From a virus, in IMG/VR virus record IMGVR_UViG_3300032286_001304, positions 33,941-97,940 of that record: 64,000 bases of DNA; one strand, 5' to 3'. A model generated the notes under the pieces. That model searched no databases. It had not been told where the DNA came from and saw only the letters and a program-made list of their open reading frames with translations. Within the stretch, counting starts at the first letter, position 1. Each line of letters opens with the position of its first letter. Below, one piece after another: positions 1,813-51,915 of the stretch. The position numbers and the translations under genes were made by a program.

Positions 1813-1823
1813 ACTAAATTTTA

Positions 1824-2680: not shown

Positions 2681-2724
2681 AGATAAATATGAACATAATA
2701 CCTTAGTTTAGTCAAGATTTTTTA

Positions 2725-3270: not shown

Positions 3271-3276
3271 TAAGTA

Positions 3277-26631: not shown

Positions 26632-27693
26632 TCAAGGATAAAGTTCAAAAACATTGGGTCGAACTGGAGTTTGACCCGATTCAAGCTCGTAGTCATATTG
26701 TGCCATAATTTCCATGTGTTTTTTGAAAGGCATCCGCTGTGGATTCCATCCAATCAGATTTTGTGCCTTTTTGCTACTACCAACCAGTTTCAAAACTTCA
26801 TTTGGGCGCTTGAGAGAATTGTCAATTTGAATATATTTTTTCCAGTCCAAATTAAAATACCCAAATGAATAATCAAGAAATTGCTCCCCATGATAACAAA
26901 CATCTGAACTTAAAACAACATCCTCTGGTTTGTCTAGTTGCAGTAGATTAAACATGCCTTCCACGCAAAAATCCGCATAAGTTTCATCTCGCCAATGGTC
27001 TATGTTACCGCAAATAATTTTATCCGTTTTGCCTAATGCAATTTTAGCCGCATAACTAGAGCACTTCCGGGCGAAAAACGATGGATGTCTATATATATTA
27101 CTATGATTGAAAGTGAATGCTGTTACGCAAAACATACCATAAGTTTGCCGGAAATACTTAACCCAATTATAGGCAAGATTTTTTGCAATCGAGTATGGGG
27201 AGCGAAATTCTAGGGGGGAATCCTCATTGAAGGGGCAGTTTCGGGGATCGCCGCCAAACATTTCACTAGTAGACGCTTGAAAAAATTTAACCTTTGGACA
27301 AAATTCGTAGCAAGAATCTAAGAGATAAAACACCGATACACCCGTGGCGAAAAGAGTGTAAGTTTCGTTTTTGAAGGAATCTCCTACATGACTTTGGGCC
27401 GCAAGGGAATATAGTTCGTCAGGTTCGCCGTAATTTTTGACAATTTCCCTAATCCCATTACGAACAGAAGAAGCGTCCGTAATATCCATGAATTGGAAGG
27501 ATAGTTTTGATTGGGGGTATTTTGATAAATCTACAGAAAATAGGGAGGAAATTTCCTCTATAATTTGCTTAGTGTTCCTGCGATATGTAAGAATCACATG
27601 ATAATTTTTTGATAGCAGTAGGTGGGTGATGGTTTTTGAATCCATTCCGGTCCCCGTTACCACTGCTAACTTAGATTTATTTTGAATATTCAT
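26632..27693 (-). CDS. gmd: GDP-mannose 4,6-dehydratase
   Basis: PDELY.LAAQSHV..SF, QASTSEMFG, RSPYSIAK, FNH, GN.D..RD, RP.EV..L.G. Confidence 0.9.
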   Translation of the reverse strand: MNIQNKSKLAVVTGTGMDSKTITHLLLSKNYHVILTYRRNTKQIIEEISSLFSVDLSKYPQSKLSFQFMDITDASSVRNGIREIVKNYGEPDELYSLAAQSHVGDSFKNETYTLFATGVSVFYLLDSCYEFCPKVKFFQASTSEMFGGDPRNCPFNEDSPLEFRSPYSIAKNLAYNWVKYFRQTYGMFCVTAFTFNHSNIYRHPSFFARKCSSYAAKIALGKTDKIICGNIDHWRDETYADFCVEGMFNLLQLDKPEDVVLSSDVCYHGEQFLDYSFGYFNLDWKKYIQIDNSLKRPNEVLKLVGSSKKAQNLIGWNPQRMPFKKHMEIMAQYDYELESGQTPVRPNVFELYP

Positions 27694-27695
27694 GA

Positions 27696-28961
27696 TTAAT
27701 TTTTAAATTCTTTCTTTTTTAATGTCCACCCATTATACTCTTTTATCTGGTCCCTTATCAAGAGAAAAAGTTTTTTCTTCGGAATTAGCCCAATCATAAA
27801 TTTCCATAGCTCGCTGGGGCTTTCGGCAGAAATCTCTTCGTTAGTATTTATATTTAAAAGAGATATATAACTATATTGTTTTCTTGGATGACTTTTTAAA
27901 ACGCTTATTAAATCAAATCTTTTATGATTTTTTAGTCGCCCATTAACGATTCTTCTAATTGATGGATCGCCCATCTCAAGTATAAATTGAGATAAATTTG
28001 TTATAGTTATTTCTATTTTATTTTTCTTGTCATATAAAACATATACTCCACATGGTTTTGTTTTATTCTTTAAACAAACAATATCCTCGTCCGTGATACT
28101 CGCGAGTCTCCACCCTTTTCGCTCTACAGCCTTACCCCGTATCAAAAAAGTTACATCTTCGCGCAATAATGGAGGATGAAGGCGAGCAAACTCCGTTGAA
28201 CTTCCTCCATATTTGTAAATTTTGCCATCTGGTCCCTTTAGCTCCATATCTTTTAGCTCTTGGCGCTTAAACCATTTTGAAATATCCATACCTTCTTTGA
28301 TATAATCACCACATGGAGTATTTGTCTTAAATCCATTAATCATTGCAGATAAATAATCTGGATTTAATTTTTTTTCTAAGGCGAATTCAGATATGTTTTT
28401 AAAATAAATAACTTCTTTTGTTTTATAATTAATTAATTTATATTCTTTGTTTGGATTTTTAATTAATTCTAACGGAGTTCCCTTTAGCGCGAAACCCTGA
28501 GATGAAATATTTTGTTTAGAAATAACAACTTTTAGACTTGGGTAAGACAACCCTCTTTCTTTGCAAAAATCTTTTAGATGGAAAATAATATATTCTTTTC
28601 CTTTGTAATCAACAAGATGATGCTCTTGGGATACTGACTCGGATAATTTTCTTTTTGAAATCTCCGAAAACTCAGGAGAATCTCCACCAGTTGTAAAATT
28701 ATAGCCATTGGGAACAAAAGTGTTATGTTTTGCTATATGAAATTTTTCTAATCTTTTCAGTTCTTCTTTTGATTGTACATTTGACTCAAGCAGTTCAACT
28801 TTAAAGTTTTTAGGACCGTATAAATTAACGGCATTTGACAGATATTGATTATGATGCTTTCTATACCAATTTCCATGATACCTTTCTCTTATATTTTTCT
28901 TTATACTCAAACCGATATAAGAATGTCCATTTATTTTGTTGGTAATTTTATAGATAATCAT
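27696..28961 (-). CDS. GIY-YIG homing endonuclease with repeated NUMOD-like C-terminal units
   Basis: MIIYKITNKINGHSYIG, PNGYN.T.GG; repeated F.....L.......GW units; start placed at ATG 28961. Confidence 0.8.
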   Translation of the reverse strand: MIIYKITNKINGHSYIGLSIKKNIRERYHGNWYRKHHNQYLSNAVNLYGPKNFKVELLESNVQSKEELKRLEKFHIAKHNTFVPNGYNFTTGGDSPEFSEISKRKLSESVSQEHHLVDYKGKEYIIFHLKDFCKERGLSYPSLKVVISKQNISSQGFALKGTPLELIKNPNKEYKLINYKTKEVIYFKNISEFALEKKLNPDYLSAMINGFKTNTPCGDYIKEGMDISKWFKRQELKDMELKGPDGKIYKYGGSSTEFARLHPPLLREDVTFLIRGKAVERKGWRLASITDEDIVCLKNKTKPCGVYVLYDKKNKIEITITNLSQFILEMGDPSIRRIVNGRLKNHKRFDLISVLKSHPRKQYSYISLLNINTNEEISAESPSELWKFMIGLIPKKKLFLLIRDQIKEYNGWTLKKKEFKN

Positions 28962-29035
28962 TGTTCGCCCTTTATCAAAATTACACCTGAGACGAACACT
29001 TTTATACACAAAAAGAATCCATATATACACTTAAA

Positions 29036-29290
29036 TCAAGTTAATTCCTGTTTATCCACCCATTCTTTTAAGCACTTTAATCCACAGAAATCCCATGCGT
29101 TAGGGCGTTGTAATTCCGCAAACCAAGTTCCCCTCGGAGTTCTTGTTAAATGATACCAGCCACCTTTAAAACTGCCGCCAATTAAGGTTTCGGCATGATC
29201 GCAAGTTTCTTTACCGCAATTATCACAGTTTAAAGTTGTTATTTGAACGAAAGTTTCGACTGTCTTTTTTAAGGTATTAACGTGTTTCAT
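29036..29290 (-). CDS. Small zinc-finger-like protein
   Basis: CDNCG ... DFCGLKC. Confidence 0.6.
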   Translation of the reverse strand: MKHVNTLKKTVETFVQITTLNCDNCGKETCDHAETLIGGSFKGGWYHLTRTPRGTWFAELQRPNAWDFCGLKCLKEWVDKQELT

Positions 29291-30216
29291 ACTTTTAATT
29301 CAAATGTTCCATTTCCAATAAATTTCGTTAAGCTATCATATCCCGAATAAGAGACGGCGCTTGATATACCTCCCCATAAATCATTCACCAACTCCTCAAG
29401 GGAAAAAATTTCTTGCTCTACGGATAAAACTTTGCCCTCGGAATGTCTTTTAACTTCCCCCTTCTGTTTTATTTGTTGATACTTGCTGGCCCCACCCCAA
29501 AACTTAAATTCTCCATCAATTATATTTTGAGCCTCTTTTGCATTCTTCCAATAGCCTCCTAACATCACGTAATCGGCCCCAGCCCCAAAAGCCTTGGCCG
29601 CATCTCCGGGAGAACGAACGCCGCCATCAGCACAAATTATCTGATCATCGGCATATCGCCCCTCTCGACACTCAATAATCTCGGTTATTTGCCCACGGTT
29701 TACGCCAGTCATTTTAGAGGTATCGCACCCGCTGCCAGAAGCTATGCCTATGCGGCAAAATACATCCCGATAAAGATTTAATCCTTTGGAAGTATGAATG
29801 TTACCTACCATTACGATATAACCTTTATGTAAAAGTTCATTTGTGAATCGAACCACATTATCTAAGTATCCGTTCGCAACATCAACTAAAACATGATTGT
29901 GTTGAAGTTTTTTAACTCTATCCCAGTCATTTAACCCAACGGAAACCCAGCATCTATCAACACGACTATATCGAGAGCGAATTTCATTAAGAATATCCAA
30001 TTGTGATTCTACCGTATCAAATCTATGAAGACAAATAGTTAATCCAAGTCGATAAGCTTCTAATGCAAATGTTTTGCCAATAATGGCTGACATTGGAGAA
30101 ATTATAAAACGATTTAGCTCTCGCGGAACATCTTCGCGAGATTTTACTGTATATTGCGGTTGAGCAATAAGGTTTACGTCGTCATAATAAATTGATTTTG
30201 AATTTAATATTTTCAT
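29287..30216 (-). CDS. GMP reductase / IMPDH-family protein
   Basis: YDDV, SPM, VDVANGY, GIASGSGC.T, ADGG...GD.AKAFGAGADYVMLG, SEGK; start placed at ATG 30216. Confidence 0.85.
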   Translation of the reverse strand: MKILNSKSIYYDDVNLIAQPQYTVKSREDVPRELNRFIISPMSAIIGKTFALEAYRLGLTICLHRFDTVESQLDILNEIRSRYSRVDRCWVSVGLNDWDRVKKLQHNHVLVDVANGYLDNVVRFTNELLHKGYIVMVGNIHTSKGLNLYRDVFCRIGIASGSGCDTSKMTGVNRGQITEIIECREGRYADDQIICADGGVRSPGDAAKAFGAGADYVMLGGYWKNAKEAQNIIDGEFKFWGGASKYQQIKQKGEVKRHSEGKVLSVEQEIFSLEELVNDLWGGISSAVSYSGYDSLTKFIGNGTFELKV

Positions 30217-30249: not shown

Positions 30250-30564
30250 TTAAGTATGAATAAAAAATATATTAATATAGATAGAATTGTTAATTTGGTC
30301 ACTGACTTGGTTCCTGACTTGGAACTGGACTTTATCCCAGACTTGTTTCCAGACTTGCTCACTGACTTGGCTATGGACTTTATCCCAGACTTGGTCCCTG
30401 ACTTGGATCCAGACTTGGTCCACGACTTTATCCCAGACTTGGTCACGGACTTGATTCCTGACTTGGTCATGGACTTGGATCCTGACTTGGTCCCTGATTT
30501 GGTTCCAGACTTGGTCACTGACTTGGTCACTGACTTGGAGCTCGACTTTATTTTGTAAGTTCAT
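30250..30564 (-). CDS. xxQV-repeat mini-protein 6 (104 aa)
   Basis: MNLQNKVELQVSDQV...; 21 tetrapeptide units; ATG at 30564. Confidence 0.65.
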   Translation of the reverse strand: MNLQNKVELQVSDQVSDQVWNQIRDQVRIQVHDQVRNQVRDQVWDKVVDQVWIQVRDQVWDKVHSQVSEQVWKQVWDKVQFQVRNQVSDQINNSIYINIFFIHT

Positions 30565-30757
30565 TTTGAATTGGAATCCCGACTTGGTCATAGACTTGGT
30601 CCCTGACTTGGTTATAGACTTGGTTCCTGACTTGGACCCTGACTTGGTTATAGACTTGGTTCCAGACTTGGTTATCGACTTGGTTCCAAACTTGGTTCCA
30701 GACTTGGATCTTGACTTGGTCCCTGACGTGTTTCCTGACTTTATTTTCTAAGTTCAT
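30548..30757 (-). CDS. xxQV-repeat mini-protein 5 (69 aa)
   Basis: MNLENKVRKHVRDQV...IQNELTK; ATG at 30757. Confidence 0.65.
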   Translation of the reverse strand: MNLENKVRKHVRDQVKIQVWNQVWNQVDNQVWNQVYNQVRVQVRNQVYNQVRDQVYDQVGIPIQNELTK

Positions 30758-30848
30758 TGCGGATTTGGTTCCTGACTTGGTCCCTGACTTGCTCATTGAC
30801 TTGGAACATGACTTGGCCTTGGTCGCGTACTTTATTTTTCAAGTTCAT
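30741..30848 (-). CDS. xxQV-repeat mini-protein 4 (35 aa)
   Basis: Hand translation MNLKNKVRDQGQVMFQVNEQVRDQVRNQIRNELRK; not in ORF track. Confidence 0.6.
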   Translation of the reverse strand: MNLKNKVRDQGQVMFQVNEQVRDQVRNQIRNELRK

Positions 30849-31053
30849 TGTGGATTTTATCCCAGACTTGGTTCCTGACTTGGTCCCAAACTTGGTTCCT
30901 GACTTGGCTCAAGACTTGGTCATAGACTTGTTTCCGGACTTGGTCCCTGACTTGGTCATGGACTTGGTCATGGACTTGGTCATGGACTTGGTCATGGACT
31001 TGGTCATGGACTTGGTCATGGACTTGGAGCTCGACTTTATTTCGTAAGTTCAT
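30832..31053 (-). CDS. xxQV-repeat mini-protein 3 (73 aa)
   Basis: MNLRNKVELQV(HDQV)x6...IHNELEK; ATG at 31053. Confidence 0.65.
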   Translation of the reverse strand: MNLRNKVELQVHDQVHDQVHDQVHDQVHDQVHDQVRDQVRKQVYDQVLSQVRNQVWDQVRNQVWDKIHNELEK

Positions 31054-31186
31054 TGCGGATAGGATTCCTGACTTGGTTATAGACTTGGTTCCTGACTTGG
31101 TTCCAGACTTGGTTATCGACTTGGTTCCAGACTTGGATACAGACTTGGTCATAGACTTGGTTCAAGACTTTATTTCGTAAGTTCAT
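31037..31186 (-). CDS. xxQV-repeat mini-protein 2 (49 aa)
   Basis: MNLRNKVLNQVYDQV...PIRNELTK; ATG at 31186. Confidence 0.65.
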   Translation of the reverse strand: MNLRNKVLNQVYDQVCIQVWNQVDNQVWNQVRNQVYNQVRNPIRNELTK

Positions 31187-31361
31187 TGCGGATAGGATTC
31201 CTGATTTGGCTATGGACTTGTTTCCAGACTTGGTTCCTGACTTGGCTCCAGACTTGGCTCCAGACTTGGTTACTGACTTGGCTATGGACTTGTTTCCAGA
31301 CTTGGATACTGACTTGGTCACTGACTTGGAGCTCGACTTTATTTTGAAAAATGTTCTTCAT
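31170..31361 (-). CDS. xxQV-repeat mini-protein 1 (63 aa)
   Basis: MKNIFQNKVELQVSDQV...PIRNELTK. Confidence 0.65.
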   Translation of the reverse strand: MKNIFQNKVELQVSDQVSIQVWKQVHSQVSNQVWSQVWSQVRNQVWKQVHSQIRNPIRNELTK

Positions 31362-31363
31362 AT

Positions 31364-31390
31364 AAAAAGGGAGACCGATAATGGTCTCCC
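31364..31390 (-). terminator. Rho-independent terminator after the DUF6745-like gene
   Basis: Minus strand GGGAGACC-ATTATC-GGTCTCCC-TTTTT (perfect 8-bp stem). Confidence 0.8.
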
Positions 31391-31396
31391 CTTGAG

Positions 31397-32293
31397 TTAA
31401 GCAATGGCTACAATTTTCATTTCCTTACCACCAAATCGCTCCTTAATTGCATCCTTCAGAGTTCGGCAAGTGGGAGATACAGCCTCAACGTGCCAGATAC
31501 CAGTGGTCTGATTCTTCATCTTGAGATAAGGCTGATATTCGAGACCTTCAAAGAGCACCGCCATATCCCAGAGTTCATATTCCGACTTCCACCACCAAGG
31601 CTGTTCTTCTTGGTCATAGTTCTCGTAGGAATCAATCTTCTTGCCGAGGTCGAGCATTCGTTCTACGCCATATTTGCGAACGAACTCAGCCTTTACGTCC
31701 GCATTGGTTTCCTTCTTGAAGAAGTCCATTGAAAGTTCCTCAGCAGGAGTCATCACCAGATATTCTGGAACAGTGACTCCGTTCAGCGAATAGAATCCCC
31801 AGCCTTCATATTCGAGAGCCATACCATTCTCGCAATGAAGACGACCACGAGCATCAGTGATAATCTTTTTTGGTTTCTTGGTCACAACACAAATATCGTC
31901 AAGGGGATAAATCAATCCCAGTTTTGCCGTATCAGACCAAGCCTTAAACTTTTCCTGAAGCTCAGGATTCACTTTTACAATTCCCTCAGTGAAGAAGAAA
32001 TCATAGAACGCAAAGATATGAGCCGAGAATGAACCATCCTGATAAGGAAATACAAACGATTCATCAGAATTAGTATGTTTCTGTATGAAAGCCCAAGCCT
32101 CTTTTGGATTATCCTTAACCACGACCGGAGTAGGATTGACCTTCAGAATAAGTTTCTGATAGTTGTGAATGATCTCAGTGGTCTCGGCAAGACCCAACGA
32201 TACCGTATCCTTACCAATTGCAACCCACTTGGCGGTATAATCCGCCATGCGAGCTTCCTGTTCGGGAGTCAGTTTTTCAAGCTTGTTTGACAT
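31397..32293 (-). CDS. DUF6745-like protein
   Basis: N-terminal KLTPEQEA.M..Y..KW..IG, AFYDFF, and GRLHCENGMALEYEGWGFY.LNGV.VP, E.NA.V, YELW, M...TTG..H...V.P motifs (family recognised from memory). Confidence 0.7.
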   Translation of the reverse strand: MSNKLEKLTPEQEARMADYTAKWVAIGKDTVSLGLAETTEIIHNYQKLILKVNPTPVVVKDNPKEAWAFIQKHTNSDESFVFPYQDGSFSAHIFAFYDFFFTEGIVKVNPELQEKFKAWSDTAKLGLIYPLDDICVVTKKPKKIITDARGRLHCENGMALEYEGWGFYSLNGVTVPEYLVMTPAEELSMDFFKKETNADVKAEFVRKYGVERMLDLGKKIDSYENYDQEEQPWWWKSEYELWDMAVLFEGLEYQPYLKMKNQTTGIWHVEAVSPTCRTLKDAIKERFGGKEMKIVAIA

Positions 32294-33829: not shown

Positions 33830-34639
33830 TCAAGAAGAAATTTTAATAATAGATGGAATTTTTTGTGAAGTCTTTATATAGTATTCTTTATTAAATTCTA
33901 AGCAATTTTCTGTTTCACTCCATTTAAAACTACATCCGTTTTCACCCCATCTTTTAGTCTGATATATTATCTTGCGCTTACTATTTTCGTTAGATAACCA
34001 TGAATAATGTTTAATATTCACTAATTTAGTAGGAATTGTCTTTGATGGAAGTTCTTTATCTGCGATAGTTATTTCTTTAAAAGAACTTGAATTATTTATG
34101 ATTCCTTTGTAAGAAAAATCATTATCATAGATGCATTCATTAAGTTTATATTCGTTAGTATAAATTTTCCAAATTCTTGGTGGACAAAATTTATCCTCAA
34201 GTATAGTTTTTTTATCAAAGACGTAATTCGTCAATGGAATGCGGAACCAACTACAAAAACGCTCTAATTCAATATATTTTAATATATTACTTATGGATTT
34301 TTCATCATAAATTTCATCTGAATCAACAAGCCACAGATGTGTTATCCCTTGATTTATCAACCATTGAGCAGCAGTATTTCGCGCTTCTTTTTCTGAGACA
34401 TATTCTGGCTGAGTAATTAGATTGTCGATTAATCTACGATTATAATATTCTAATAGAATATCTTGTGTTTTATCTTTAAATTTTTCTTCTTTATACTCTA
34501 AGAATGGAACTGATACGGCGCAAATAAGAAATTCATTTCCATTTAATTTATTGCCTTGTGCATTAATCCAAGGGTAAAGTGAATCATGGATATGTTCCTC
34601 TGTATTGTAGCCGCAGTATATAATGCCGATTTTGCTCAT
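33830..34639 (-). CDS. GT-A fold glycosyltransferase (GT2-like)
   Basis: E..ARN, WLVDSDE (DxD), PPRIW, IKHYSW. Confidence 0.7.
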
Positions 34640-35010
34640 TTTTTGCCCTCAAATATGTTACCAACAACTTCCATTGTTTCGTGAATAAATACAGAATCAT
34701 TTCTCGCAAACCCAAATGAACGATCAAATGAAAACATTGCCATCTCTTCATCCCAAAACACTTCTCCGATAGTTTCTTCTATATCTTCAGCTGGATTCAT
34801 CCATTTGAATTTAATAATATCGCCTTCATATATTTCATTTCCATTTTTATCTTTTAGACCAGTATATTGCTGAAGGACATATTCTTCGCCACCCGAACCA
34901 TTCTGTAAATTATAAACAGATCCTTTTAAATCTATTGTGATATGATAATTGTAATCATATCTAGCAGCAAGTCTATCCCACGCTCTAAATTTTATTTTTC
35001 TATAATTCAT
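34636..35010 (-). CDS. YopX family protein
   Basis: [32 protein letters not shown]. Confidence 0.9.
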
Positions 35011-35027
35011 AAGATGAATAAATCAAG

Positions 35028-35777
35028 TTATTTAAAAAAAGTCAAATCATTTATTGGATTTATGTTAGAAAAATTTATGTATTTTGCGCGACATTGTTCA
35101 TTTTCCCAGTATTCATCTGTAAAATGATATTTCCAAGATGGATAATATAAATCATCTGAATTAGGATGATAGACTAAAATTTTTCCACCAACTGCTAACA
35201 TCAAATGAGGTGGACCAGATTCACTTCCAATATATTTTCCAATTAATTTATAACAAGCTGCCATATTTCTTATATCTAAATCTAGAATTTTTATGACACC
35301 ATCTATATTGTCAGTATTATGAGATAATCCAAAATTTATAGGAGTATAACCAAAATCAATTAAATGTTTTACAAGTAACTTTATTTGTTCATAATTAAAA
35401 CATCTAAGAGATGAAGCTAGATCGCCTCCTTTATTAGAAGTAGTAAAATTTACAGCGATTGGATTTTGTATTCCTTTTACAATATTTTGTGCAAACTCTA
35501 ATTCTTCATCTTTAATAATAATGTATGGAATTGGTGATTTATTACAATTAAAATATTTTAAATGAGCTGCTGACCGATGAATTCTATCATTTGTTTCTGG
35601 ACAATGATCGTAATCTAAATTACTAAATTCAATATCTCCTAGTCCATCAAAAATTTTTGCGACATTTCTGCATACTTTATCATCAGGCAAAATAATTTTT
35701 TTAGCTATTCCATGTTTAAAAAATGGAGTTAACCAAAGATTATCTCCTAAATTACCAATTTTAGAATTTATTGTCAT
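35028..35777 (-). CDS. GT9 (heptosyltransferase)-like glycosyltransferase
   Basis: LGDNLWLTP and YIGSESGPPHLMLAVG. Confidence 0.7.
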   Translation of the reverse strand: MTINSKIGNLGDNLWLTPFFKHGIAKKIILPDDKVCRNVAKIFDGLGDIEFSNLDYDHCPETNDRIHRSAAHLKYFNCNKSPIPYIIIKDEELEFAQNIVKGIQNPIAVNFTTSNKGGDLASSLRCFNYEQIKLLVKHLIDFGYTPINFGLSHNTDNIDGVIKILDLDIRNMAACYKLIGKYIGSESGPPHLMLAVGGKILVYHPNSDDLYYPSWKYHFTDEYWENEQCRAKYINFSNINPINDLTFFK

Positions 35778-35798
35778 AATGATGTTATTAGTATATTA

Positions 35799-36692
35799 TT
35801 ATGATAATTTTTCTTTAATTTTGTCAATCACTAAATTAATATCTATATTATCATTGCCTCCATGAGAATAGAAAGAATAATTATTTGGATTATTAGTAGA
35901 TAAAGCAGTTGGATTATTATCGTTACCCCAATGAATTGGCGTAAGGGAGATTTGATTTAGTCTGTAAGCACCGCAAACAAGCGACATTCCTGAGTCAGAA
36001 CCAATTATTAAATCACATTCATTTGCAATTTGAATTTGTTCAAAAAATGATTTTTCATTTATTCTTATGTAATTAGTTTTCAGTTTATTCTTAAAAGAAT
36101 CACTTAAATTCCAATTAGAAAACCAAGATTCATCTTGTTCACCGCCACTTTGGATGACGCAATAATCTAAGTTAATTAGTATTTCTATAAGATTTTCTAA
36201 ATACTTTTTAGTTACCCATCTTTTAGATTCTTTACCAAAATTCGGCATTCCAGTAAAAAAAATAGTTTTTCTATCACCAAATAGTTTTTTAACTGGACTC
36301 CACCATTTTACTAATTTTGGTATCTTTTCCTCTTCGGTTAGTAAAGTCCATTGGTCTTCTGAAAAACCTGCCATCAGAAATGATTCAAGATAAATATTTC
36401 TTTGAGATGGATAAATAGAATCAGGATGTTGTGGATTTAAATCTAATCTATGATTACAAGAATTAAATTTATTAAAATCATTTTTAGATTCTAATCCTTC
36501 ATATCCATCTGTAATAAATATTGAATCTAAATCTGGATGATTTAATAAAAGTGGAGCGAATGAAGACGATTTTTTACCAATTGCCCATGTTATATGAGAA
36601 TTAAGATCATATTTTTTTACTAATCTAGCAGTAGGAAGTGCAGCTAGATTGTCTCCAATCATTGAAGCTCGACCCATGAACCATTTATTCAT
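35799..36692 (-). CDS. GT9 (heptosyltransferase)-like glycosyltransferase
   Basis: IGDNLAALP, LLNHPDLD, KRW, IIGSDSGM. Confidence 0.75.
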   Translation of the reverse strand: MNKWFMGRASMIGDNLAALPTARLVKKYDLNSHITWAIGKKSSSFAPLLLNHPDLDSIFITDGYEGLESKNDFNKFNSCNHRLDLNPQHPDSIYPSQRNIYLESFLMAGFSEDQWTLLTEEEKIPKLVKWWSPVKKLFGDRKTIFFTGMPNFGKESKRWVTKKYLENLIEILINLDYCVIQSGGEQDESWFSNWNLSDSFKNKLKTNYIRINEKSFFEQIQIANECDLIIGSDSGMSLVCGAYRLNQISLTPIHWGNDNNPTALSTNNPNNYSFYSHGGNDNIDINLVIDKIKEKLS

Positions 36693-36700
36693 AATAGATT

Positions 36701-37402
36701 TTAACTAAAAAATTTCTCGGAACCTTGAATATTTGGTTCTCCAAGATGAAGAACATTTTTATTAATCCTTCTTAATTTACCAGTATATTCAAAATCTCCA
36801 TTAATACAATCACCCCATAAATTTCTCCAAATCCAATCATGTTCTCCGATTTCATGATTTTCAGAATACCTATTACCAGATTTAACTATAGAACTTTTTG
36901 AATTCCAGATTTGTAAATATCCAAATCCTATTCCTGGATAAGATACAAATTCAGACTCATCTTTTTCCCCACTAAGAACTAATTCAAAATCTTTTTTATT
37001 AGGAATAATTACTCTTCTTGAAGAATAAAAATTTTCAATATCTATAAGTTCTTTTTCTAAGATATTTCTATAATTTTCAGTAAGAGCAATATCACAATCA
37101 ATATGACAAATCCAATCTTGGAATTTAAAATGATCGATACAACTATTTATTGCAGCACCTTTATTAAAATTCTTTCCATTTTTAAAAAAAGAATCAGTTT
37201 CAAAAAAAGTTATATTATTTTCAATACAAAAATCTTTAATATCATAATCTGTATTTTTTGTAATTACAATAAAGTTATTAAAAATTTTTTTTGAGAATAG
37301 ATAAGTTATATTTAACATTCTCAAGGCTGATTTACCAGAACATGTAGTTATAGCATCAATTTTCATATAAAATTTTTTTAAAGGCTGAATAAAAAGTTTC
37401 AA
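36701..37402 (-). CDS. GT-A fold glycosyltransferase
   Basis: FNKGAAIN, HIDCDI, GYLQIW, VLHLG; true start probably second Met. Confidence 0.7.
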   Translation of the reverse strand: MKLFIQPLKKFYMKIDAITTCSGKSALRMLNITYLFSKKIFNNFIVITKNTDYDIKDFCIENNITFFETDSFFKNGKNFNKGAAINSCIDHFKFQDWICHIDCDIALTENYRNILEKELIDIENFYSSRRVIIPNKKDFELVLSGEKDESEFVSYPGIGFGYLQIWNSKSSIVKSGNRYSENHEIGEHDWIWRNLWGDCINGDFEYTGKLRRINKNVLHLGEPNIQGSEKFFS

Positions 37403-38345
37403 TCATTTTTTTATGAGAAAATCTTTTAGCACTTTCCCATACTTTTGTTCTATCTAATTGCAAACATTTATTATAAATATCTAAAATATTATCATTATTA
37501 TTGTTTAAATAATATCCATTTTCTCCTTCGATTAAAAGATATTCAAAACATCCTTTATTATATGCAATAATTGGAGTTCCCATAGCTAAAGATTCTACTA
37601 CGCTTAAATTAAAAGCGGTATTCCATGTATGCGGATATATTGAAAGAGAAGATTTTTTTAAATATTCATTTTTTTCTTTTTCACTTATTAAGCCCAAATA
37701 GAAAGTTGTTTTTTTATCTATATAATCTAAAAGAGGATAATTATCAAATATAGGTCCAGCAAAAATACCTTTTATATTATTTTCTAAACAAAATTTTGCA
37801 GTAAAAATAGAATTTTGATGATTATCATGTCTAGAGCATACGAAAATAGATCCATCTCTTTCTGAATCTATGAATTCATCTGGAACATATTTACCGATAA
37901 CTACTGGAAATCCTTTACCGAATTTAGCTTTTTCATTTGGCCTATATAAAAGAGTGTATGGAGTATAAGGATGTTGAGCACCACAATCTCCCATAAGTGA
38001 CCAATGAACAAGTTTTGATTTTAATTTTCCTATATTAATAAATAAGCAATCATGATGATATAAGAAAATATCAAATTCTTCAGCATTTTTTATAATTTCA
38101 CTTATTCTAATACCATTTCTTAGTCTTATTAAGTCATCTAAAGAAAGAGTTATGCACGCTTTTTTATTTTCATGTTCTTCTAAATTTTCAAAATTAGATG
38201 AACTTCCAAATATATAAAATTCATCTTTTCCATTATTTAAATATTCTTTTGCATATCTTGCAAAACATGCAGCACCTCCATACTTTTTTGCATTTATAGA
38301 ATAATCTTCTGTTTGAATATTTAAATCTAAATAACCTATTTTCAT
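37356..38345 (-). CDS. GT4 (GT-B) glycosyltransferase
   Basis: YGGA, FNLSVVESLAMGTPII, EGENGY. Confidence 0.8.
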   Translation of the reverse strand: MKIGYLDLNIQTEDYSINAKKYGGAACFARYAKEYLNNGKDEFYIFGSSSNFENLEEHENKKACITLSLDDLIRLRNGIRISEIIKNAEEFDIFLYHHDCLFINIGKLKSKLVHWSLMGDCGAQHPYTPYTLLYRPNEKAKFGKGFPVVIGKYVPDEFIDSERDGSIFVCSRHDNHQNSIFTAKFCLENNIKGIFAGPIFDNYPLLDYIDKKTTFYLGLISEKEKNEYLKKSSLSIYPHTWNTAFNLSVVESLAMGTPIIAYNKGCFEYLLIEGENGYYLNNNNDNILDIYNKCLQLDRTKVWESAKRFSHKKMIETFYSAFKKILYEN

Positions 38346-38358
38346 TAAAAATTATTTA

Positions 38359-39597
38359 TTACAATTTTGATAATTCTAAGGCTAATTGTTTAGCTATTTC
38401 CGCTTTAATTCCAGTATGTAATCCAATATAGATTGAATTATAATGTAAGTAATCAGCATTTGGGTAATCTTTAGGATTTCCATATTCTTTAAATGCAGTA
38501 TGACGGAGAAGATTTGAACCTACAAGTCCACGATAACCAACTCCAGCAGCATTTAAATATCCTTTAACTTTTTGAATAAGTTCCTTGTCTGGATATTTTG
38601 GATCACGAATAATTGGTAGAGAAAGAAGCATATGACCACTTTCACTATTAATATGTTGATTTAAATATTTATATACTTTTTTACAGACTTTTGAATCATA
38701 TGAATTAAGGTTAGAATAAAATACTTTACTGATAGAGCGACGATTTTCTTCTGACCATTTTAGAGAACGATCAAAATCTAATGAATGCATGTATGCAATC
38801 AAATTAGTGCTTCGGTAATTAGAACCGACTAAATTAAAATCAAAACTTGGATCTACATCTGGGTTCTTATATTCTTCCGGCATCCCGCGAGTCATGCCAT
38901 GATTACGCGCCATTCTATACCAATTAGCTTCTTCTAAGGTTTGACAGAAAATTAATCCACCTTCCTGCATACCACTTGTAAAATGGCTTGCATAAACAGA
39001 AGTTGATGAAGTTGTAATATTACAAAAATGTCTATTGTAACTATCAAAAGGATGGGTTTTATTAAAAGCTTCCCATGAAAAAGACGATTCACAATTATCT
39101 AATAAAAGTTTTACACCACGTTTTTGACATTCTTTTGCTAGGGTTTCTAAATTGCAAGATTGACCTAGAAGAGTAGTATAAAAAACGGTATCAATATCCT
39201 TATCTTTATCAAGTTTTTCTAAGATTTGTTTTACCGATGGATTCAAATTTACTAAATCTACATCAACAAATACAGGCTTAAAAGAAAAATTAATCCAAAC
39301 ACTGACACTTGAAATCCAATTAACTACATTAAATAAAACTTTATTTTTACCACAATTCCATAAACCTTGTTTTTTAAGTTCTTCTTTTCTATGCAAAGCA
39401 ATTAGTTCATTTGCTTCACTTCCAGATCCAACCATAACAACATATGGAGATCCAGTATATTTAGACCATTTATTTTCATATTTCTCTATCTCAGGGCCAA
39501 GAGTCCATTTATCATTAGTTAAAATAAATTTACTGATTTTGAGTTTATCAAGCACTGTCATGCTTGAATATCCAAGTTGCCAATTATATTTTTTCAT
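38359..39597 (-). CDS. DegT/DnrJ-family PLP enzyme, ColD/E1-type 3-dehydratase
   Basis: SGSEAN, PVFVD, DNCES, YASHF...EGG (His at the usual Lys site), RNHG, G.NYR; start placed at ATG 39597. Confidence 0.75.
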   Translation of the reverse strand: MKKYNWQLGYSSMTVLDKLKISKFILTNDKWTLGPEIEKYENKWSKYTGSPYVVMVGSGSEANELIALHRKEELKKQGLWNCGKNKVLFNVVNWISSVSVWINFSFKPVFVDVDLVNLNPSVKQILEKLDKDKDIDTVFYTTLLGQSCNLETLAKECQKRGVKLLLDNCESSFSWEAFNKTHPFDSYNRHFCNITTSSTSVYASHFTSGMQEGGLIFCQTLEEANWYRMARNHGMTRGMPEEYKNPDVDPSFDFNLVGSNYRSTNLIAYMHSLDFDRSLKWSEENRRSISKVFYSNLNSYDSKVCKKVYKYLNQHINSESGHMLLSLPIIRDPKYPDKELIQKVKGYLNAAGVGYRGLVGSNLLRHTAFKEYGNPKDYPNADYLHYNSIYIGLHTGIKAEIAKQLALELSKL

Positions 39598-39952
39598 TAT
39601 ATCCAAATTTTTTTTCGCTATATTCATTTTTTGGGAAGAATTTATCTTGAAGAGCTTTTTTTAATTGAAATCTTTTATAGTTAAGATTATCTACAATAGA
39701 TGCTGGTAAATTAGAGTTTACCTTTATTTCATCTACTAAGTCAAATATTTTTTCATTACAATCAAGAAGTTCTTTGTATTCAGTAGAGTCAATTATACTT
39801 GATAAAATATTCTCGTTTATTTGATTTGAAATTTCAGATTTTATTTGTAAAAAATTATTAAATGCAGTTACGTTTTTCGTTTTATTATATTTGACTTCAG
39901 ATATCGAAAGAAGATCGAAACAAAAAGCTTCATCTAGTTGTAATTTAATCAT
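39584..39952 (-). CDS. Hypothetical protein (phage family found with glycan genes)
   Basis: DEA..FD.LSI.EVK ... N..RF..K. Confidence 0.55.
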   Translation of the reverse strand: MIKLQLDEAFCFDLLSISEVKYNKTKNVTAFNNFLQIKSEISNQINENILSSIIDSTEYKELLDCNEKIFDLVDEIKVNSNLPASIVDNLNYKRFQLKKALQDKFFPKNEYSEKKFGYNEKI

Positions 39953-46543: not shown

Positions 46544-47605
46544 ATGAGTCAAATAACATTTAACACGGCCTTAAACTCGCTAAGTTTTGGACAAACATCA
46601 ATTGCTATTCTAAGAGAAGCATACAAGGCAAATTTAGATTGTTGTATATTTCCAATAGGTCAACAAATTGATATTTCCGCACAAGTTCAGGATGAAGGAT
46701 TTAATAAATGGCTTCAACAAACAATTCAGCTATCTCCTAAAAAACAATCTAGGGATAATAGAGTTATTAAACTTTGGCATATAAATGGTTCGCTTGAATC
46801 ATATGGGAAAGAACAAGAATTAATCACTTTTCTAGAAACTGATCAAATTACAGAGTATGAATTAAATACTTTAAAAAATCAAAAAACTGTATGGGTAACT
46901 AGCAAATATACCAAACAAGTAATGGAAGATGCTGGTTTGAATAATGTTAAATATTTACAATTAGGCTTTGATACTCATAATTTCAAAAAATTAAATAAGC
47001 GTTATTATGATGATGGAATTACTGTAATTGGTTTAGGCGGAAAGTTTGAAGACAAGAGAAAAGCCCACGGTCAAACAATCAGAGCATTGTTAGATAATTA
47101 TGGCAATAACCCAAAGTTTATGCTTCACTTTGCGGTTACGAATCCATTCTTTAAACCGGAAGATAACGAACGAATAGTTCAACAACTAACTCAGGGCAAA
47201 AAATATACGAATGTTGTTTGGGTTCCGCTAATGGCTACAAATCAACAATATAATGATTTTCAAAACAGTTGTGATATTTGGTGCGCCACATCTAACGCCG
47301 AAGGTTATGATCTTCCAGCCTATCAAGCACTGTCTCTAGGCAAAAAAGTTGTTGCTGTTAACGCTCACGTTTATCCAGATTACTTAAATAATGAAAATTC
47401 TTTTCTTTTTGAGGCTTCTGGCAAGCAAACTTGTTACGATGGAGTATTTTTCCATAATGGACATCCATTTAATCAAGGTAATTTCTTCAGTTGGAAAACA
47501 GAAGATTTTATAAATAAACTAAACGAAGCTATTAGTTCTCCTAATAAGCCTCAAATAACTCCTAGAACTTATAAAGAAGTTTTTAATGAATTAATTACAA
47601 GTTAA
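46544..47605 (+). CDS. GT4 (GT-B) glycosyltransferase
   Basis: LETD, VTSKY, LGFD, GKFE..RK, AEGYDLP..QAL..GK. Confidence 0.8.
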   Translation: MSQITFNTALNSLSFGQTSIAILREAYKANLDCCIFPIGQQIDISAQVQDEGFNKWLQQTIQLSPKKQSRDNRVIKLWHINGSLESYGKEQELITFLETDQITEYELNTLKNQKTVWVTSKYTKQVMEDAGLNNVKYLQLGFDTHNFKKLNKRYYDDGITVIGLGGKFEDKRKAHGQTIRALLDNYGNNPKFMLHFAVTNPFFKPEDNERIVQQLTQGKKYTNVVWVPLMATNQQYNDFQNSCDIWCATSNAEGYDLPAYQALSLGKKVVAVNAHVYPDYLNNENSFLFEASGKQTCYDGVFFHNGHPFNQGNFFSWKTEDFINKLNEAISSPNKPQITPRTYKEVFNELITS

Positions 47606-47610
47606 GTGTA
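47606..47610 (+). promoter_or_regulatory. GTGTA motif, putative phage late promoter (representative copy)
   Basis: GTGTA-N9-ATG here and on minus strand before 33498 and 55449; further copies before 5894, 18568, 28961, 63522. Confidence 0.55.
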
Positions 47611-47619
47611 AATAAATAT

Positions 47620-48405
47620 ATGACAACCCTTCAAGAAATACTAAATAAAGATGATGTTTTTGCCGCTGTTGACTATAAAGACCAATCTCTTTTAGATAAC
47701 GTCAAAAAAGCTGCTGATAAAAAATTTGGAACTAATCGTTCTTATGTAAAGAATCTATGGATTCTACGTGAATATAAAAAGCGTGGTGGTAAAGTAAAGT
47801 ATTCTGGAAAACGTCCATCTAGCGATATTATTAAGAAAAATGTCCAAAAAGATGTTGAACGTATACGTCGCGAAAAAGCAAAAGGTGGAGTTGAAGTAGA
47901 TTTGAGCGGAATTGCCCGCGCTGTTTTTTTTGAACAAGAAGAAATTCTATTGGCCCATTTAATTGAAATAGACGAAGAAGTTCAAGACTTAGCTTCCGAT
48001 TTGATTTATTTATCTTCTACTGATTACGACACCTTTGAAGAATATATTTGCGAGGATGATTTATTTGAGACACAAGCAAAAGATAATTCTGATAAAATCT
48101 CAGAAGTATATAAAAAATATCACGAAATAGTTAATATGGGTTATGAGGCTCTCAAAAAATGGGCCGAAAATCCATGTTCACACGTTGCCTCGTTGAGTCG
48201 TGGCCCTATTAATCGTAATCTACGCTTGCTTTCTAAAAAACGCGATGAGTGGACGATGAGCGATGTTCGTAGCGCGAATAGAACAATTTCTTTTGTTAGT
48301 CGCATGAAAGGCGCGGAACAGGGCAATCCTACTAAAAGTAAAGATGGCAAATCTTGCCCATCTAAACGTGACATTTCTTTAAAAAATTGGGCATATTCTC
48401 CATAA
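47620..48405 (+). CDS. Hypothetical basic protein (probably late)
   Basis: 261 aa ORF after GTGTA motif; YKKRGG and NM...L..W...RNLRLL...WT...ISF..RM...SLKNW segments. Confidence 0.6.
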   Translation: MTTLQEILNKDDVFAAVDYKDQSLLDNVKKAADKKFGTNRSYVKNLWILREYKKRGGKVKYSGKRPSSDIIKKNVQKDVERIRREKAKGGVEVDLSGIARAVFFEQEEILLAHLIEIDEEVQDLASDLIYLSSTDYDTFEEYICEDDLFETQAKDNSDKISEVYKKYHEIVNMGYEALKKWAENPCSHVASLSRGPINRNLRLLSKKRDEWTMSDVRSANRTISFVSRMKGAEQGNPTKSKDGKSCPSKRDISLKNWAYSP

Positions 48406-48443
48406 TATGGAATACTATGTTTATGCTTTAAATTTATATAAAA

Positions 48444-48653
48444 ATGCCAATTCCATTCCCGAATAAAAAAGAAAAAAGGTCAGAATTTCTTTCTCGCTGT
48501 ATGGGTGATAAAGTTATGAATGATGAATTTAATAATATATCACAACGATATGCGATTTGTTTTAAAAAATGGGAAGACAAAAAAAAAGCTGCATCTGCAA
48601 TAATTGAATCAAAAGACGATGAAGTAGCATATTTTATGGAGGATAATAACTAA
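48444..48653 (+). CDS. Small phage protein (MPIP.P...E...F..RCM family)
   Basis: Motif MPIPFP..KEK.SEFLSRCMGD..M..EF....QR.AIC...W. Confidence 0.6.
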   Translation: MPIPFPNKKEKRSEFLSRCMGDKVMNDEFNNISQRYAICFKKWEDKKKAASAIIESKDDEVAYFMEDNN

Positions 48654-49057
48654 TGCCTGTCTATCTATTTGAGTCAGTAAATAAAGAAGGTTTATATACA
48701 GATATATTCTTTACTTTTAAAGATGCGCCAAGAATAGGCACAATCATTGAACATGAAGAAAAAAAATGGCGAAGGATTCCTACTTTGCCATATACAGCAA
48801 GTGATACACAAGCAATAGATCCATTCGACAATAAAGCTTTTGTAGAAAAAACAGGAAAGATGAAAGGCACTTGGGGAGATATGGAAAAATTTTCTGGTGA
48901 GCTATCAGAAAAGAGAGCTAAATTAGCAGGTGGTGAAGATCCAATCTTAAATAGATACGAAGACCAAAAACAGAAAGCTACTGGATTGGAATCATTTAGG
49001 CGCAAAAAGAATAAAGCTAAAGAAAAATTAGCAAAAAAAGGCATTATTCTAGAATAA
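48653..49057 (+). CDS. Hypothetical protein (FmdB-like MP.Y start, Cys absent)
   Basis: MPVYLF; TAATG coupling to upstream gene. Confidence 0.55.
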   Translation: MPVYLFESVNKEGLYTDIFFTFKDAPRIGTIIEHEEKKWRRIPTLPYTASDTQAIDPFDNKAFVEKTGKMKGTWGDMEKFSGELSEKRAKLAGGEDPILNRYEDQKQKATGLESFRRKKNKAKEKLAKKGIILE

Positions 49058-49214
49058 TCATTGACAATAGTGGTGGATTGCTAGATAAGTTATTATCAGC
49101 AATCTATCTCTATAAAATGACTAGAAATAGTGTAATTAATTTTCTAAACAAGTTAAAGTATTGAAAAAAAGTAAATATTGGAACTAGTTAAATAATAAAA
49201 ACAAGTAAAATAAT

Positions 49215-49892
49215 ATGGCATACGGTAAAAAAACTGGTGGTAATTCGGACTACAAACTTCTTGTATTCCGACTAAAAAACAAAGATGAGAACTCTAAAGA
49301 ATTAGTTCCTAATCTTTTTCAAGTTAGCGAAAAAGTAAATGATGAATGGGTAGCCAAAAAAGAAATGGTTTCTAATGTTAGTGGAAATCTAACAAAGCTT
49401 GAACTAGATACCAAAGAATATAATAATGAACCTTACAAAGTTATTAAGTTATTCTTACAGGATGAAGAATCAAAGGAAACTTATCTTATCGACCTAAGAT
49501 ACGGAAGGTTAACAAGAAATCTATTTAACTCTCTACTAGCTTTAGAATCATTTGATAATCTAGAAATTTCTAATTACGCTAAGGAATCTAAATCAGATGG
49601 TAAAACTTATCCAAATATCTCTCTATGGCAACGTGCGGCTGGAGCAGAAAAGGGAACTTTAATTAAGGGTAAATTTAACCTTAAAGAAATTCCACCTGCT
49701 GAAGAAGTAAAAGATAAGAAAGGCAAAGTTATTAAGAGAGACTATGCTGAAGTCGATGATTTCTTTGAAAAGCATCTTAAAGAATTTTCTGAGAAAATAG
49801 GTAAGAATAAGACAACTAAACCAGCAGCACCATCAAAAAAAGTCCAGAAAGATACTGATAATGAAGCTGGAGATGATGATATTCCATTCTAA
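49215..49892 (+). CDS. Single-stranded DNA-binding protein (putative)
   Basis: Beta-rich core, flexible linker and acidic DDDIPF C-terminus. Confidence 0.65.
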   Translation: MAYGKKTGGNSDYKLLVFRLKNKDENSKELVPNLFQVSEKVNDEWVAKKEMVSNVSGNLTKLELDTKEYNNEPYKVIKLFLQDEESKETYLIDLRYGRLTRNLFNSLLALESFDNLEISNYAKESKSDGKTYPNISLWQRAAGAEKGTLIKGKFNLKEIPPAEEVKDKKGKVIKRDYAEVDDFFEKHLKEFSEKIGKNKTTKPAAPSKKVQKDTDNEAGDDDIPF

Positions 49893-49915
49893 TTTAGAAT
49901 AAAATCTAAATAATC

Positions 49916-49956
49916 AATACTCAATAGAGATTAAGTTCTTTATTGAGTATTTTTTT
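49916..49956 (+). terminator. Rho-independent terminator
   Basis: AATACTCAATAGAG...CTTTATTGAGTATT stem followed by T run. Confidence 0.7.
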
Positions 49957-50004
49957 GTCTAAAATAAATTGACAAATTATTCATCTAAGTAAATAATAGT
50001 CGAT

Positions 50005-51915
50005 ATGTCTCAAAAGAAAAGGGTTTTAATTCATACAAATGCACCTTGGCTTAAAACAGGTTTAGCTGAAAATGGAAAAATTCTAGCCAAATATTTATTC
50101 AAAACAAATAAGTATGAATTATTTTATTACTGCTCTCAGACATATGAAAATGATCCACAGCTTCAAACGACACCTTGGAAGTCATTTGGTTGCATTCCCG
50201 CAGACCCTCATATTCAAAGTCAGTTAAATCAAGATCCATCAAAAGCGCGAGATACTGCTTATGGAGCTTATTTTATAGATAAAATTATCAAGGAAAATAA
50301 AATTGATGTCTATATTGGTTCAGATGATATATGGTCATTTAATGGATATGTAGATAAGCCTTGGTGGAATAAAATAAATTCATGTTTACATATAACTGTA
50401 GATTCACTTCCAATTTTAGAGTCCGCAATCGATCAAGCTTCAAAAACAAAGAATTACTTTACTTGGACAAAATTTCCACTAGAAGAATTTCGTCAAAAAA
50501 ATCTTCATAATGTTAAAAATATTTATGGAGTCATGGATACAGAAATATATTCTCCAATAACTAAAGAGAACAAACAGCATTTAAGAAATCTTTTTAACAT
50601 AGACCAAAATACAATTATCTTTGGATATGTTTTTAGAAATCAACTAAGAAAAAGAACTCTACAACTTTTAAAAGCATTTTCTGAGTTTAAGAAAAAGAAT
50701 CCTGATGTAAAAGCTAAAATTCATTTACATACAAGTTTCTCTGAAAATGGACATGGATGGAATATCCCTAAGATGATTAGATATTTCAATATTAAAAATG
50801 AAGATATTCTATGCACTTATGTATGTAAAAAATGCGGAAAATGGATAGTAGCTCCATATCAGGGAGAAGATATAAATTGTCCAATTTGCAAAGCGGAAAA
50901 ATCAATGATTACTCCAACTATTGCCACTGGAGTTCCGCATGAAGAAATGAAATTTCTCTATGGAATATGGGATGCTGGAGTTAGTCCTATGAATTCCGGT
51001 GGTCTAGAATACCATAATTGCAATACTTTACTATGCGGACTTCCTCTTGCATCAACAAATTACTCATCCGGTGAAGATTTTTGTGAACAATCTTTTGTAT
51101 TTCCTATTAATTGGGAAATGGATTTTGAACCAGGAACAAATTTCATAAAAGCGGCCCCATGTATTAAATCAATAGTTGGATTCATGGAAAAGATTTCAAG
51201 AATGACAGAGTCAGAAAGAAAATCAATCGGTGAAAAGGGCAGAACTTGGGCCAAAGCTACCTTCTCAATAGATACAGTTGGTAAACAATGGGAGGAAGTA
51301 ATCGACTCATCTGCTTTTGTTGATTGGGATAATATAAATTTAGAACAACCCAAATCTAATGAAAATTATGTTCTTCCAAATAATTATAAAGAAATTCCTG
51401 ATAATGATTTCGTAAAACTTCTTTATAATAATATCTTAAATAGAGATCCAGATGAAAATGGATTTAAGAACTGGATGACTCAACTTAATAATAAAGCACC
51501 TAGAGAAAAGCTTTATGAATATTTTATAGACGTTGCAAGAAAAGAAAATATAGAAAAGAAAACTATTTCAGCATTTGATTTGATAGATAAGAATAGAAGT
51601 AATAAAAGGCTAATATTTGTAACTCCTCAAAGTGCGGGTGATATATTTATTGTATCTTCAATATTAAAAGCTGTAAAAGAACAGTATTTTAATTACGATA
51701 TATATTTCATGTGCGACCAAAAGTTCCATGAGATACTAGAAGGAAATCCATATATTCATAAAATCTTGCCTTGGATTCCACAATTTGATAATGAAATGTT
51801 TGCTATTGGAGCAGGTCAAACTGAACAACTTTTTCATGCATATTTAAATCCAACAGTTGCAACTCAAGCAAAATTAGCATATCTAGGAAATACTAACCCA
51901 AAATTTAATAAATAA
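50005..51915 (+). CDS. Multidomain glycosyltransferase: GT4 with Zn-ribbon insert + DUF4214-like + GT9 N-terminal lobe
   Basis: TGLA, RNQ.RK, CKKC..CPIC, SGGLE.....LLCGLP; FV..LY.NIL.RDPD..G...W; SAGDIF.VSS....K..Y...IY. Confidence 0.75.
   Translation: MSQKKRVLIHTNAPWLKTGLAENGKILAKYLFKTNKYELFYYCSQTYENDPQLQTTPWKSFGCIPADPHIQSQLNQDPSKARDTAYGAYFIDKIIKENKIDVYIGSDDIWSFNGYVDKPWWNKINSCLHITVDSLPILESAIDQASKTKNYFTWTKFPLEEFRQKNLHNVKNIYGVMDTEIYSPITKENKQHLRNLFNIDQNTIIFGYVFRNQLRKRTLQLLKAFSEFKKKNPDVKAKIHLHTSFSENGHGWNIPKMIRYFNIKNEDILCTYVCKKCGKWIVAPYQGEDINCPICKAEKSMITPTIATGVPHEEMKFLYGIWDAGVSPMNSGGLEYHNCNTLLCGLPLASTNYSSGEDFCEQSFVFPINWEMDFEPGTNFIKAAPCIKSIVGFMEKISRMTESERKSIGEKGRTWAKATFSIDTVGKQWEEVIDSSAFVDWDNINLEQPKSNENYVLPNNYKEIPDNDFVKLLYNNILNRDPDENGFKNWMTQLNNKAPREKLYEYFIDVARKENIEKKTISAFDLIDKNRSNKRLIFVTPQSAGDIFIVSSILKAVKEQYFNYDIYFMCDQKFHEILEGNPYIHKILPWIPQFDNEMFAIGAGQTEQLFHAYLNPTVATQAKLAYLGNTNPKFNK

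Follow-up and report, generated by a model that had tools for sequence, protein, structure and literature searches.

An array of six overlapping mini-genes was found on the minus strand of a viral DNA, and sequence comparison identified these genes as detached copies of the inter-domain tetrapeptide tract of the DUF6745 protein family. The stretch analysed (64,000 nucleotides, approximately 30% G+C, hereafter the window) comes from a 97.9-kb IMG/VR record that was 63% complete by CheckV. We slightly favour the explanation that the mini-genes encode free-standing hypervariable DUF6745 tracts, which would act in trans on a tract-less core protein encoded next to them, probably in phage-host conflict. 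The original prediction had described an expandable set of free helical peptides and had missed their kinship to the repeat between the domains of DUF6745 proteins, the family of the neighbouring gene product. Because the peptides appear to be detached tract copies, they would more likely act as partners of a core protein than as free peptides. The roles that had been proposed for them (decoys, anti-defence inhibitors, specificity subunits) are speculative.

The array was composed of a 12-nt unit encoding x-x-Q-V, and the ORFs were chained by five start/stop overlaps of the same 17-nt type. Six minus-strand ORFs of 63, 49, 73, 35, 69 and 104 aa were located at 31361-30250, and their coordinates, strand and lengths all matched those first described. 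Mini-gene 1 (31170..31361, minus strand, 63 aa) carried the head MKNIFQNKV and the tail IRNELTK, and its product was the partner used in the complex model. It was followed by mini-gene 2 (31037..31186, minus strand, 49 aa) and by mini-gene 3 (30832..31053, minus strand, 73 aa), in which six HDQV units stood in succession with identical 12-mers. Mini-gene 4 (30741..30848, minus strand, 35 aa) showed a register break of 6 nt (2 residues). Look-alikes of the mini-gene 5 product (30548..30757, minus strand, 69 aa) in the ESM Atlas were unnamed clusters of small viral proteins. Mini-gene 6 (30250..30564, minus strand, 104 aa, approximately 22 units) was without the NELTK tail and had an A/T-rich 3' end; a promoter-like TTAACA-16-TATATT within this end, at 30293-30266, putatively serves the next gene. 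The heads MNLxNKV (MKNIFQNKV in gene 1) and the tails NEL[T/E/R]K-stop (absent from gene 6) were as described in the original prediction. Heads and tails were in tetrad register with V, I or L at every fourth residue, and each mini-protein could be written as (x-x-[Q/K/P/E]-[V/I/L])n throughout, heads and tails included.

The repeat was then characterised at the DNA level. TRF gave a 12-nt period with 84.8 copies at 30302-31329, and in the 97.9-kb record the 12-nt periodicity was confined to this array. The 68 xxQ[V/I] units of the array came in 33 versions as tetrapeptides and in 37 as 12-mers. The Q and V codons were nearly invariant, third positions too, and the variation was found at positions 1-2 of both x codons. 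The invariant codons and the few distinct 12-mers indicated young units homogenised at the DNA level that vary chiefly at the two x residues. The run of identical HDQV units in mini-gene 3 was attributed to recent slippage. A higher-order repeat of 133 nt with 84% identity was also present, and together with the HDQV run it pointed to the same turnover processes in the window as in its relatives. The GC content of the array was 44%, compared with 30.6% for the genome. In Pfam, PHROGs and PADLOC, the mini-proteins had sub-threshold, low-complexity matches only (such as DUF4816, phrog_5189 and Cas2), which were taken as noise. No match was obtained by megablast of the locus against GenBank phages.

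Some of these features would also be expected if the array were a by-product of runaway expansion and unequal recombination of a DUF6745-derived tract, with ORFs that are open and perhaps translated and have no selected function. The Q and V codons fixed down to the third position, the six identical 12-mers and the raised GC content are consistent with such very young, DNA-homogenised repeats, and so are the long open stretches in every frame. The last point bears on the original prediction, which had argued for coding from the absence of stop codons. That argument proved weak, because every frame on both strands had open stretches of 74-165 codons, approximately the length of whole repeat blocks. 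When positions were treated as independent, ~8 stops were expected in the array (P ~2.5e-4), and this expectation overstates the coding case, since x1 is drawn from a small number of codon families (xGG, xAT).

Stronger evidence for coding came from the junctions and from other arrays. Junction 1 (31170..31186, minus strand) was a 17-nt overlap of the form ATG-N11-TAA, which codes for the tail of one gene and the head of the next at once. The same structure was found on the minus strand at 31037-31053, 30832-30848, 30741-30757 and 30548-30564. The claim that all five overlaps are exactly 17 nt was borne out, with the ATG of the next gene starting 17 nt before the end of the preceding TAA. The junction sequence AATGAACTTnnnAAATAAAGT occurred 5 times with 0 mismatches. 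With up to 3 mismatches allowed, 100 dinucleotide-preserving shuffles contained 0.85 matches on average, and 0/100 reached 6. The identical ATG-N11-TAA overlap was present at 16 junctions. These came from five contigs that have diverged from each other (the window, L007, L014/L132, L046 and L089), across which the heads M[N/T/I][L/S]xNKV and the tails N[E/D][L/I][T/R/E]K were kept. The Asn codon that gives the A and T of the junction ATG was AAT in 16/16 cases, though AAC was the commoner Asn codon within the repeats. The last junction of L007 led into a 64-aa non-repetitive ORF (L007:3819-4013, minus strand) with the head MNLQNKV followed only by degenerate xxKV/xxEV units; this ORF may represent either an old mini-gene that has diverged or the ancestral terminus of the array.

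Arrays in other phages showed the same period-4 pattern with different codons and residues (xDSV, xNSV, xNQL and xxQV). Because these arrays use different codons and peptides (xxQV, xDSV, xNQL), the period-4 pattern appears to be kept at the protein level. Each of the other array types had its own conserved head and tail, with overlaps of 1, 4, 11 or 14 nt or gaps of 2 or 6 nt. In addition, full-length proteins contained the repeat in the same frame and orientation. The conserved junctions, the recoded period-4 arrays, the in-frame internal tracts and the pattern of variation among the window units, which was like that of Tweety gene 54, were stronger evidence for coding than the lack of stop codons, and the six ORFs were accepted on this evidence as real, separately framed protein-coding mini-genes. 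The opposite-strand reading, which would give DLVP repeats, and the TKSG frame were both rejected, since they had no conserved start and lay on the wrong strand or in the wrong frame compared with the tracts inside DUF6745 proteins.

These observations made an unselected by-product improbable. Such an array would not be expected to keep heads, tails, ATG and TAA at 16/16 junctions in diverged contigs, or AAT wherever the ATG requires it. It would also not account for unrelated codon sets that give the same period-4 pattern in other phages, or for indels between strains that comprised whole units or whole genes and left the architecture intact. Another reading of the junctions is that programmed +1 frameshifting at AAA-TAA-A fuses the six ORFs into one long repeat protein. 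If the T were skipped, the product would read ...NELTK-KV... and hold the tetrad register with V at every fourth residue, and AAA TAA A was indeed present at 16/16 junctions of this array type. However, a frameshift has no need of the overlapping-frame ATG, which was conserved in 16/16 junctions. The same-family arrays with 1-, 4-, 11- and 14-nt overlaps or 2- and 6-nt gaps had no common slippery site, and no stimulatory element was identified. We therefore regard the fused protein as very improbable.

A role of the repeats as DNA or RNA, with incidental ORFs, was also weighed. Protein-binding iterons, a recombination hotspot or a structured RNA would fit the constant 7-8-nt core (CCAAGTC), the strict 12-nt spacing and the open frames on both strands. 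However, the family had no DNA core in common, whereas the protein pattern and the start/stop architecture were common to it. The arrays always lay on the coding strand of DUF6745, and the repeat was found in frame inside bona fide DUF6745 proteins. This gave a nucleic-acid role hardly any probability. For separately translated mini-genes, translation of genes 2-6 would most likely proceed by termination-reinitiation at the conserved ATG-N11-TAA overlaps. Mini-gene 1 had no clear Shine-Dalgarno sequence. A terminator-like hairpin ending in a U-run (31366..31393, minus strand) was located between the DUF6745 gene and the array, 4 nt ahead of the first mini-gene ATG. It had an 11-bp stem and a 6-nt loop; the 81-nt stretch around it folded at -24 kcal/mol (z -4.05), and 0/200 shuffles were as stable. 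Partial terminator, RNA end and processing site are its candidate roles. When the window hairpin was used in a metagenome scan for sister strains, 0 matches were obtained.

The gene directly upstream of the array (31397..32293, minus strand) encoded a tract-less DUF6745 protein of 298 aa, the presumed core partner. Its product matched Pfam PF20530 with 42.1 bits (cut-off 27) and an E-value of 7.7e-11, and a six-frame search of the 97.9-kb record gave a DUF6745 match at 31397-32293 only. Tblastn of this protein returned one weak match only, and no paper mentioning the family was found in the literature collection searched. In many DUF6745 proteins (PF20530, phrog_31813), a tetrapeptide tract lies between an N-terminal helical domain and a C-terminal domain. 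The tract of these homologues mapped to one fixed site, between residues ~72 and ~79 of the window protein, where the window protein had a linker of only ~7 residues; it would have lost the tract or never had it. The protein of L133 was 56% identical to the window DUF6745 and 428 aa long, with ~130 residues of xTNL/xNKL repeats at this site. Tracts of xxQV or xNEV were found at the same site in P0073, P0037, P0063, P0030 and P0019. Among these, P0073 is a metagenomic DUF6745 of 408 aa with an xxQV tract, and mini-protein 6 was 56% identical to this tract (residues 95-193), with an E-value that was inflated by repetition. In P0037, the N-terminal flank of the internal tract (residues ~74-85) read ..NELFKNGNQV.., like the window junction with its tail NELTK and head ..NKV; this may be a trace of interconversion between mini-genes and internal tracts, or chance.

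The internal tracts and the window repeat were alike in period 4, a hydrophobic fourth residue, Q/S at the third position, W/R/Y/G/S/D at the first and N/D/S at the second. The mini-genes thus matched the DUF6745 tract type in period, fourth residue and sequence likeness. They differed in their location. In tract-bearing proteins the tract was part of a single polypeptide, in frame and flanked by its two domains, whereas the window repeat was six separately framed, overlapping ORFs with their own heads and tails, downstream of a tract-less DUF6745 and beyond its stop codon and the hairpin. In L132, a DUF6745 gene whose product was 76% identical to that of the window preceded 4 mini-genes; these shared the 17-nt overlap type and differed in content, and the gene downstream of them was also a different one.

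To see how the two forms are distributed, 44 viral loci chosen by DUF6745 homology alone were surveyed. DNA with a 12-nt period was present within 4 kb of DUF6745 in 27/44 loci. In a control of 112 kb of phage DNA, the sole 12-nt periodic segment was the window array. After truncated loci had been corrected by hand, 11 loci had an internal tract and 27 were tract-less. Detached arrays were found at 0/11 tract-bearing and 14/27 tract-less loci (Fisher p = 0.0026); approximately half of the tract-less loci were without an array within 4 kb. Among the 44 loci surveyed, internal tract and detached array were, as read from these loci, mutually exclusive forms. In all detached arrays that were translated, mini-ORFs with their own conserved heads and tails were present on the DUF6745 strand. 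Both complete array-bearing genomes (2/2) had exactly one DUF6745, of tract-less size. The window array showed the same traits as this class, namely the same strand, proximity to a tract-less DUF6745, conserved heads and tails, and coupled starts. The L007 and L089 arrays had no DUF6745 within these short contigs. In L105 (reverse strand, ~1483-4043), two DUF6745 paralogues flanked two mini-genes, an arrangement absent from the window.

Comparison of related strains showed how such arrays change. L097 and L128 differed over 9.7 kb by ~6 point changes outside the arrays and by indels of 12 nt (one unit), 194 nt and 170 nt (single mini-gene periods), all of which were inside the arrays. In the case of L143 and L144, the flanks were ~96% identical and the arrays differed by ~1.8 kb. 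The description of the array as an expandable cassette library was fair in this respect, because in relatives entire units and entire genes are gained, lost and recombined. Fast turnover at the level of units and genes was shown in relatives by their sequences, and we infer it for the window from the six identical HDQV units. The array would change through slippage of 12 nt and through unequal crossing-over in which entire mini-genes take part.

Structure models were used to examine how the mini-proteins might act. The AF2 model of the window DUF6745 had a pLDDT of 93.6 and showed an N-terminal helical domain (helices 10-27, 35-50, 63-74, 87-102 and 110-124) and an alpha/beta C-terminal domain. 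Neither Foldseek with the fold nor a sequence profile gave a match in the PDB, and a wide VIA-align search gave helical bundles at Z <=5.1, within noise. Since these fold searches used the whole model, not the C-terminal domain alone, we do not claim that the fold is without a known counterpart. In BFVD, the fold matched other DUF6745 proteins only, such as that of Microcystis phage LMM01. The internal tract of P0073 was modelled with moderate confidence (pLDDT 56-73) as a hairpin of two long helices (76-127 and 135-187).

The complex of the window DUF6745 with mini-protein 1 was modelled with a score of 0.82, which was reached by 58/80 solved complexes and by 2/110 mismatched pairs (rough counts, own alignment used). 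The best control gave 0.01. The score is a model confidence, to which likeness to tract-bearing family members may contribute. At least 90% of contacts were common to the runs, and the partner had a pLDDT of at least 78. When an unrelated protein was put in place of the core, the pLDDT of mini-protein 1 dropped to 46. The modelled contacts on the core were at residues 3-28, 63-67, 79-119, 141-174, flanking the insertion point of the tract. On mini-protein 1, they included every V- and Q-position within residues 17-61, 9/12 of the first variable positions and 3/11 of the second. A helical peptide with a constant Q/V stripe and a variable face had been predicted; in the complex model the stripe was buried and the second variable position was mostly exposed, in support of this prediction. 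The trans form docked on the core and the cis form paired with itself in a hairpin showed no obvious match between their models. The complex model supports binding of the mini-protein to DUF6745 as a prediction.

A different possibility is that the mini-proteins are real and act alone as free helical peptides, as decoys, inhibitors of host proteins or mutual partners like the arms of the cis hairpin, and that their DUF6745 origin is merely historical. The cis tract, modelled as a self-paired helical hairpin, fits this possibility, as do arrays that lie kilobases from DUF6745 or in a short contig without it. However, detached arrays were seen only with tract-less DUF6745, both complete array-bearing genomes kept a DUF6745 gene, and the complex-model score far exceeded the controls. 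Free action was considered unlikely on these grounds.

For the favoured partnership with the core, the following mechanism is proposed. The tract would be encoded beside the tract-less DUF6745 as a chain of small genes. The mini-proteins are predicted to be helical, and in the model the Q/V stripe would lie against the N-terminal helical domain of the core and leave the variable positions partly free. A single core could in this way take on any one of six surfaces. The hairpin between the DUF6745 gene and the array, the lack of a clear Shine-Dalgarno sequence in mini-gene 1, the tract-less loci without an array, the L007 and L089 arrays and the mismatch of the cis and trans models speak against this mechanism. 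A more specific form of this mechanism, which we put forward tentatively and hold to be less probable than partnership itself, is a split combinatorial diversity system without a reverse transcriptase. Each mini-protein would dock on one core and show a different face, which would allow several specificities at once. New specificities would arise by slippage and crossing-over and could serve, for example, to keep pace with variable defence or receptor proteins of the host. If the detached peptides do bind the core in trans, this would be a new viral means to diversify the surface of one protein.

Phage proteins with hypervariable tetrapeptide tracts are known, and the variant described here would be a tract detached as mini-genes. 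One such tract has been studied in Tweety gp54 (also Che8 gp57 and PMC gp51), where unique N- and C-terminal parts flank 15-48 copies of a tetrapeptide encoded by 12 nt (PMC2884959). The third codon positions of the Tweety gene 54 repeats are invariant, the first and second vary, and the GC content is locally raised (PMC2884959). The window array was similar to this gene in the 12-nt unit, the fixed third and variable first and second codon positions and the locally raised GC content. It differed in the repeat, which is AAxx in Tweety and xxQV in the window, and in being an array of mini-genes compared with a single gene. Homology of Tweety gp54 to DUF6745 was rejected, since it had no Pfam DUF6745 match and the hhalign probability was 0.15%. 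Changes in the repeat number of Tweety gp54 tune counter-defence against Phrann gp29/gp30 (PMC9262239). By analogy, the mini-genes probably take part in phage-host conflict, for example by tunable recognition or by counter-defence; this suggestion draws only on the Tweety comparison and on the location of the array among replication-type and auxiliary genes of the same strand.

Variable region 2 of bbp36 in Bordetella phage BMP-1, cited as a parallel in PMC2884959, has 9-20 short in-frame tandem repeats. Judged by description, it resembles the array as a phage gene with a variable number of short in-frame repeats and differs in its 24-bp unit and single gene. Diversity-generating retroelements resemble the array in targeting hypervariability to the surface of a phage protein. 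However, they work by adenine-directed substitution, whereas the array varied by indels of units and genes, and a retroelement was rejected because no reverse transcriptase (RVT_1) match was obtained in the 97.9-kb record, which is 63% complete. A literature search for such mini-gene arrays found no paper.

DUF6745 proteins present a tract in two exclusive forms, either built in or detached as chains of coupled mini-genes, in a viral family that is much larger than the Tweety gp54 example. The locus adds a sizeable class of phage proteins of 4-12 kDa, whose genes are mis-started or missed by gene callers. An internal-tract homologue was found in a culturable host and offers an experimental entry point. 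This protein, gp38 of the Mycobacterium abscessus prophage prophiGD102-1 (QSM05137.1, 481 aa), matched DUF6745 with an E-value of 6e-29 and contained ~190 aa of xxQL repeats. Its gene (L182:2429-3871, plus strand) was annotated as 'hypothetical protein' and lay near a RepA-like initiator gene, with two small ORFs between them.

The surroundings of the array were also examined. Among the products encoded in the window are a DNA polymerase of family B, a helicase similar to DnaB, a UvsX-like recombinase, a ribonucleotide reductase and a J-like central tail fibre. No tRNA genes were found in the window, and a prokaryote genome scan returned 5 MAG contigs only and no host clue. From ~1 to 46 kb, nearly all genes were on the minus strand. 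At ~46000, gene orientation and GC/AT skew flipped sign and reverted near 54 kb, which marked a plus-strand glycosyltransferase block in the minus-strand arm. Many sugar-modification genes (NDP-sugar dehydratase/epimerase, DegT-type aminotransferase and glycosyltransferases) were present at 26632-27693, 33830-39627 and 46544-51915, and this gene set suggests modification of phage DNA or of surface glycans. A 444-aa ORF at 27696-29030 (minus strand) had homing-endonuclease PHROG matches of the GIY-YIG and HNH types. It was located between a GDP-mannose 4,6-dehydratase-like gene (26632-27693) and an IMPDH/GMP-reductase-like gene (29287-30216), and is possibly a mobile insertion near the array.
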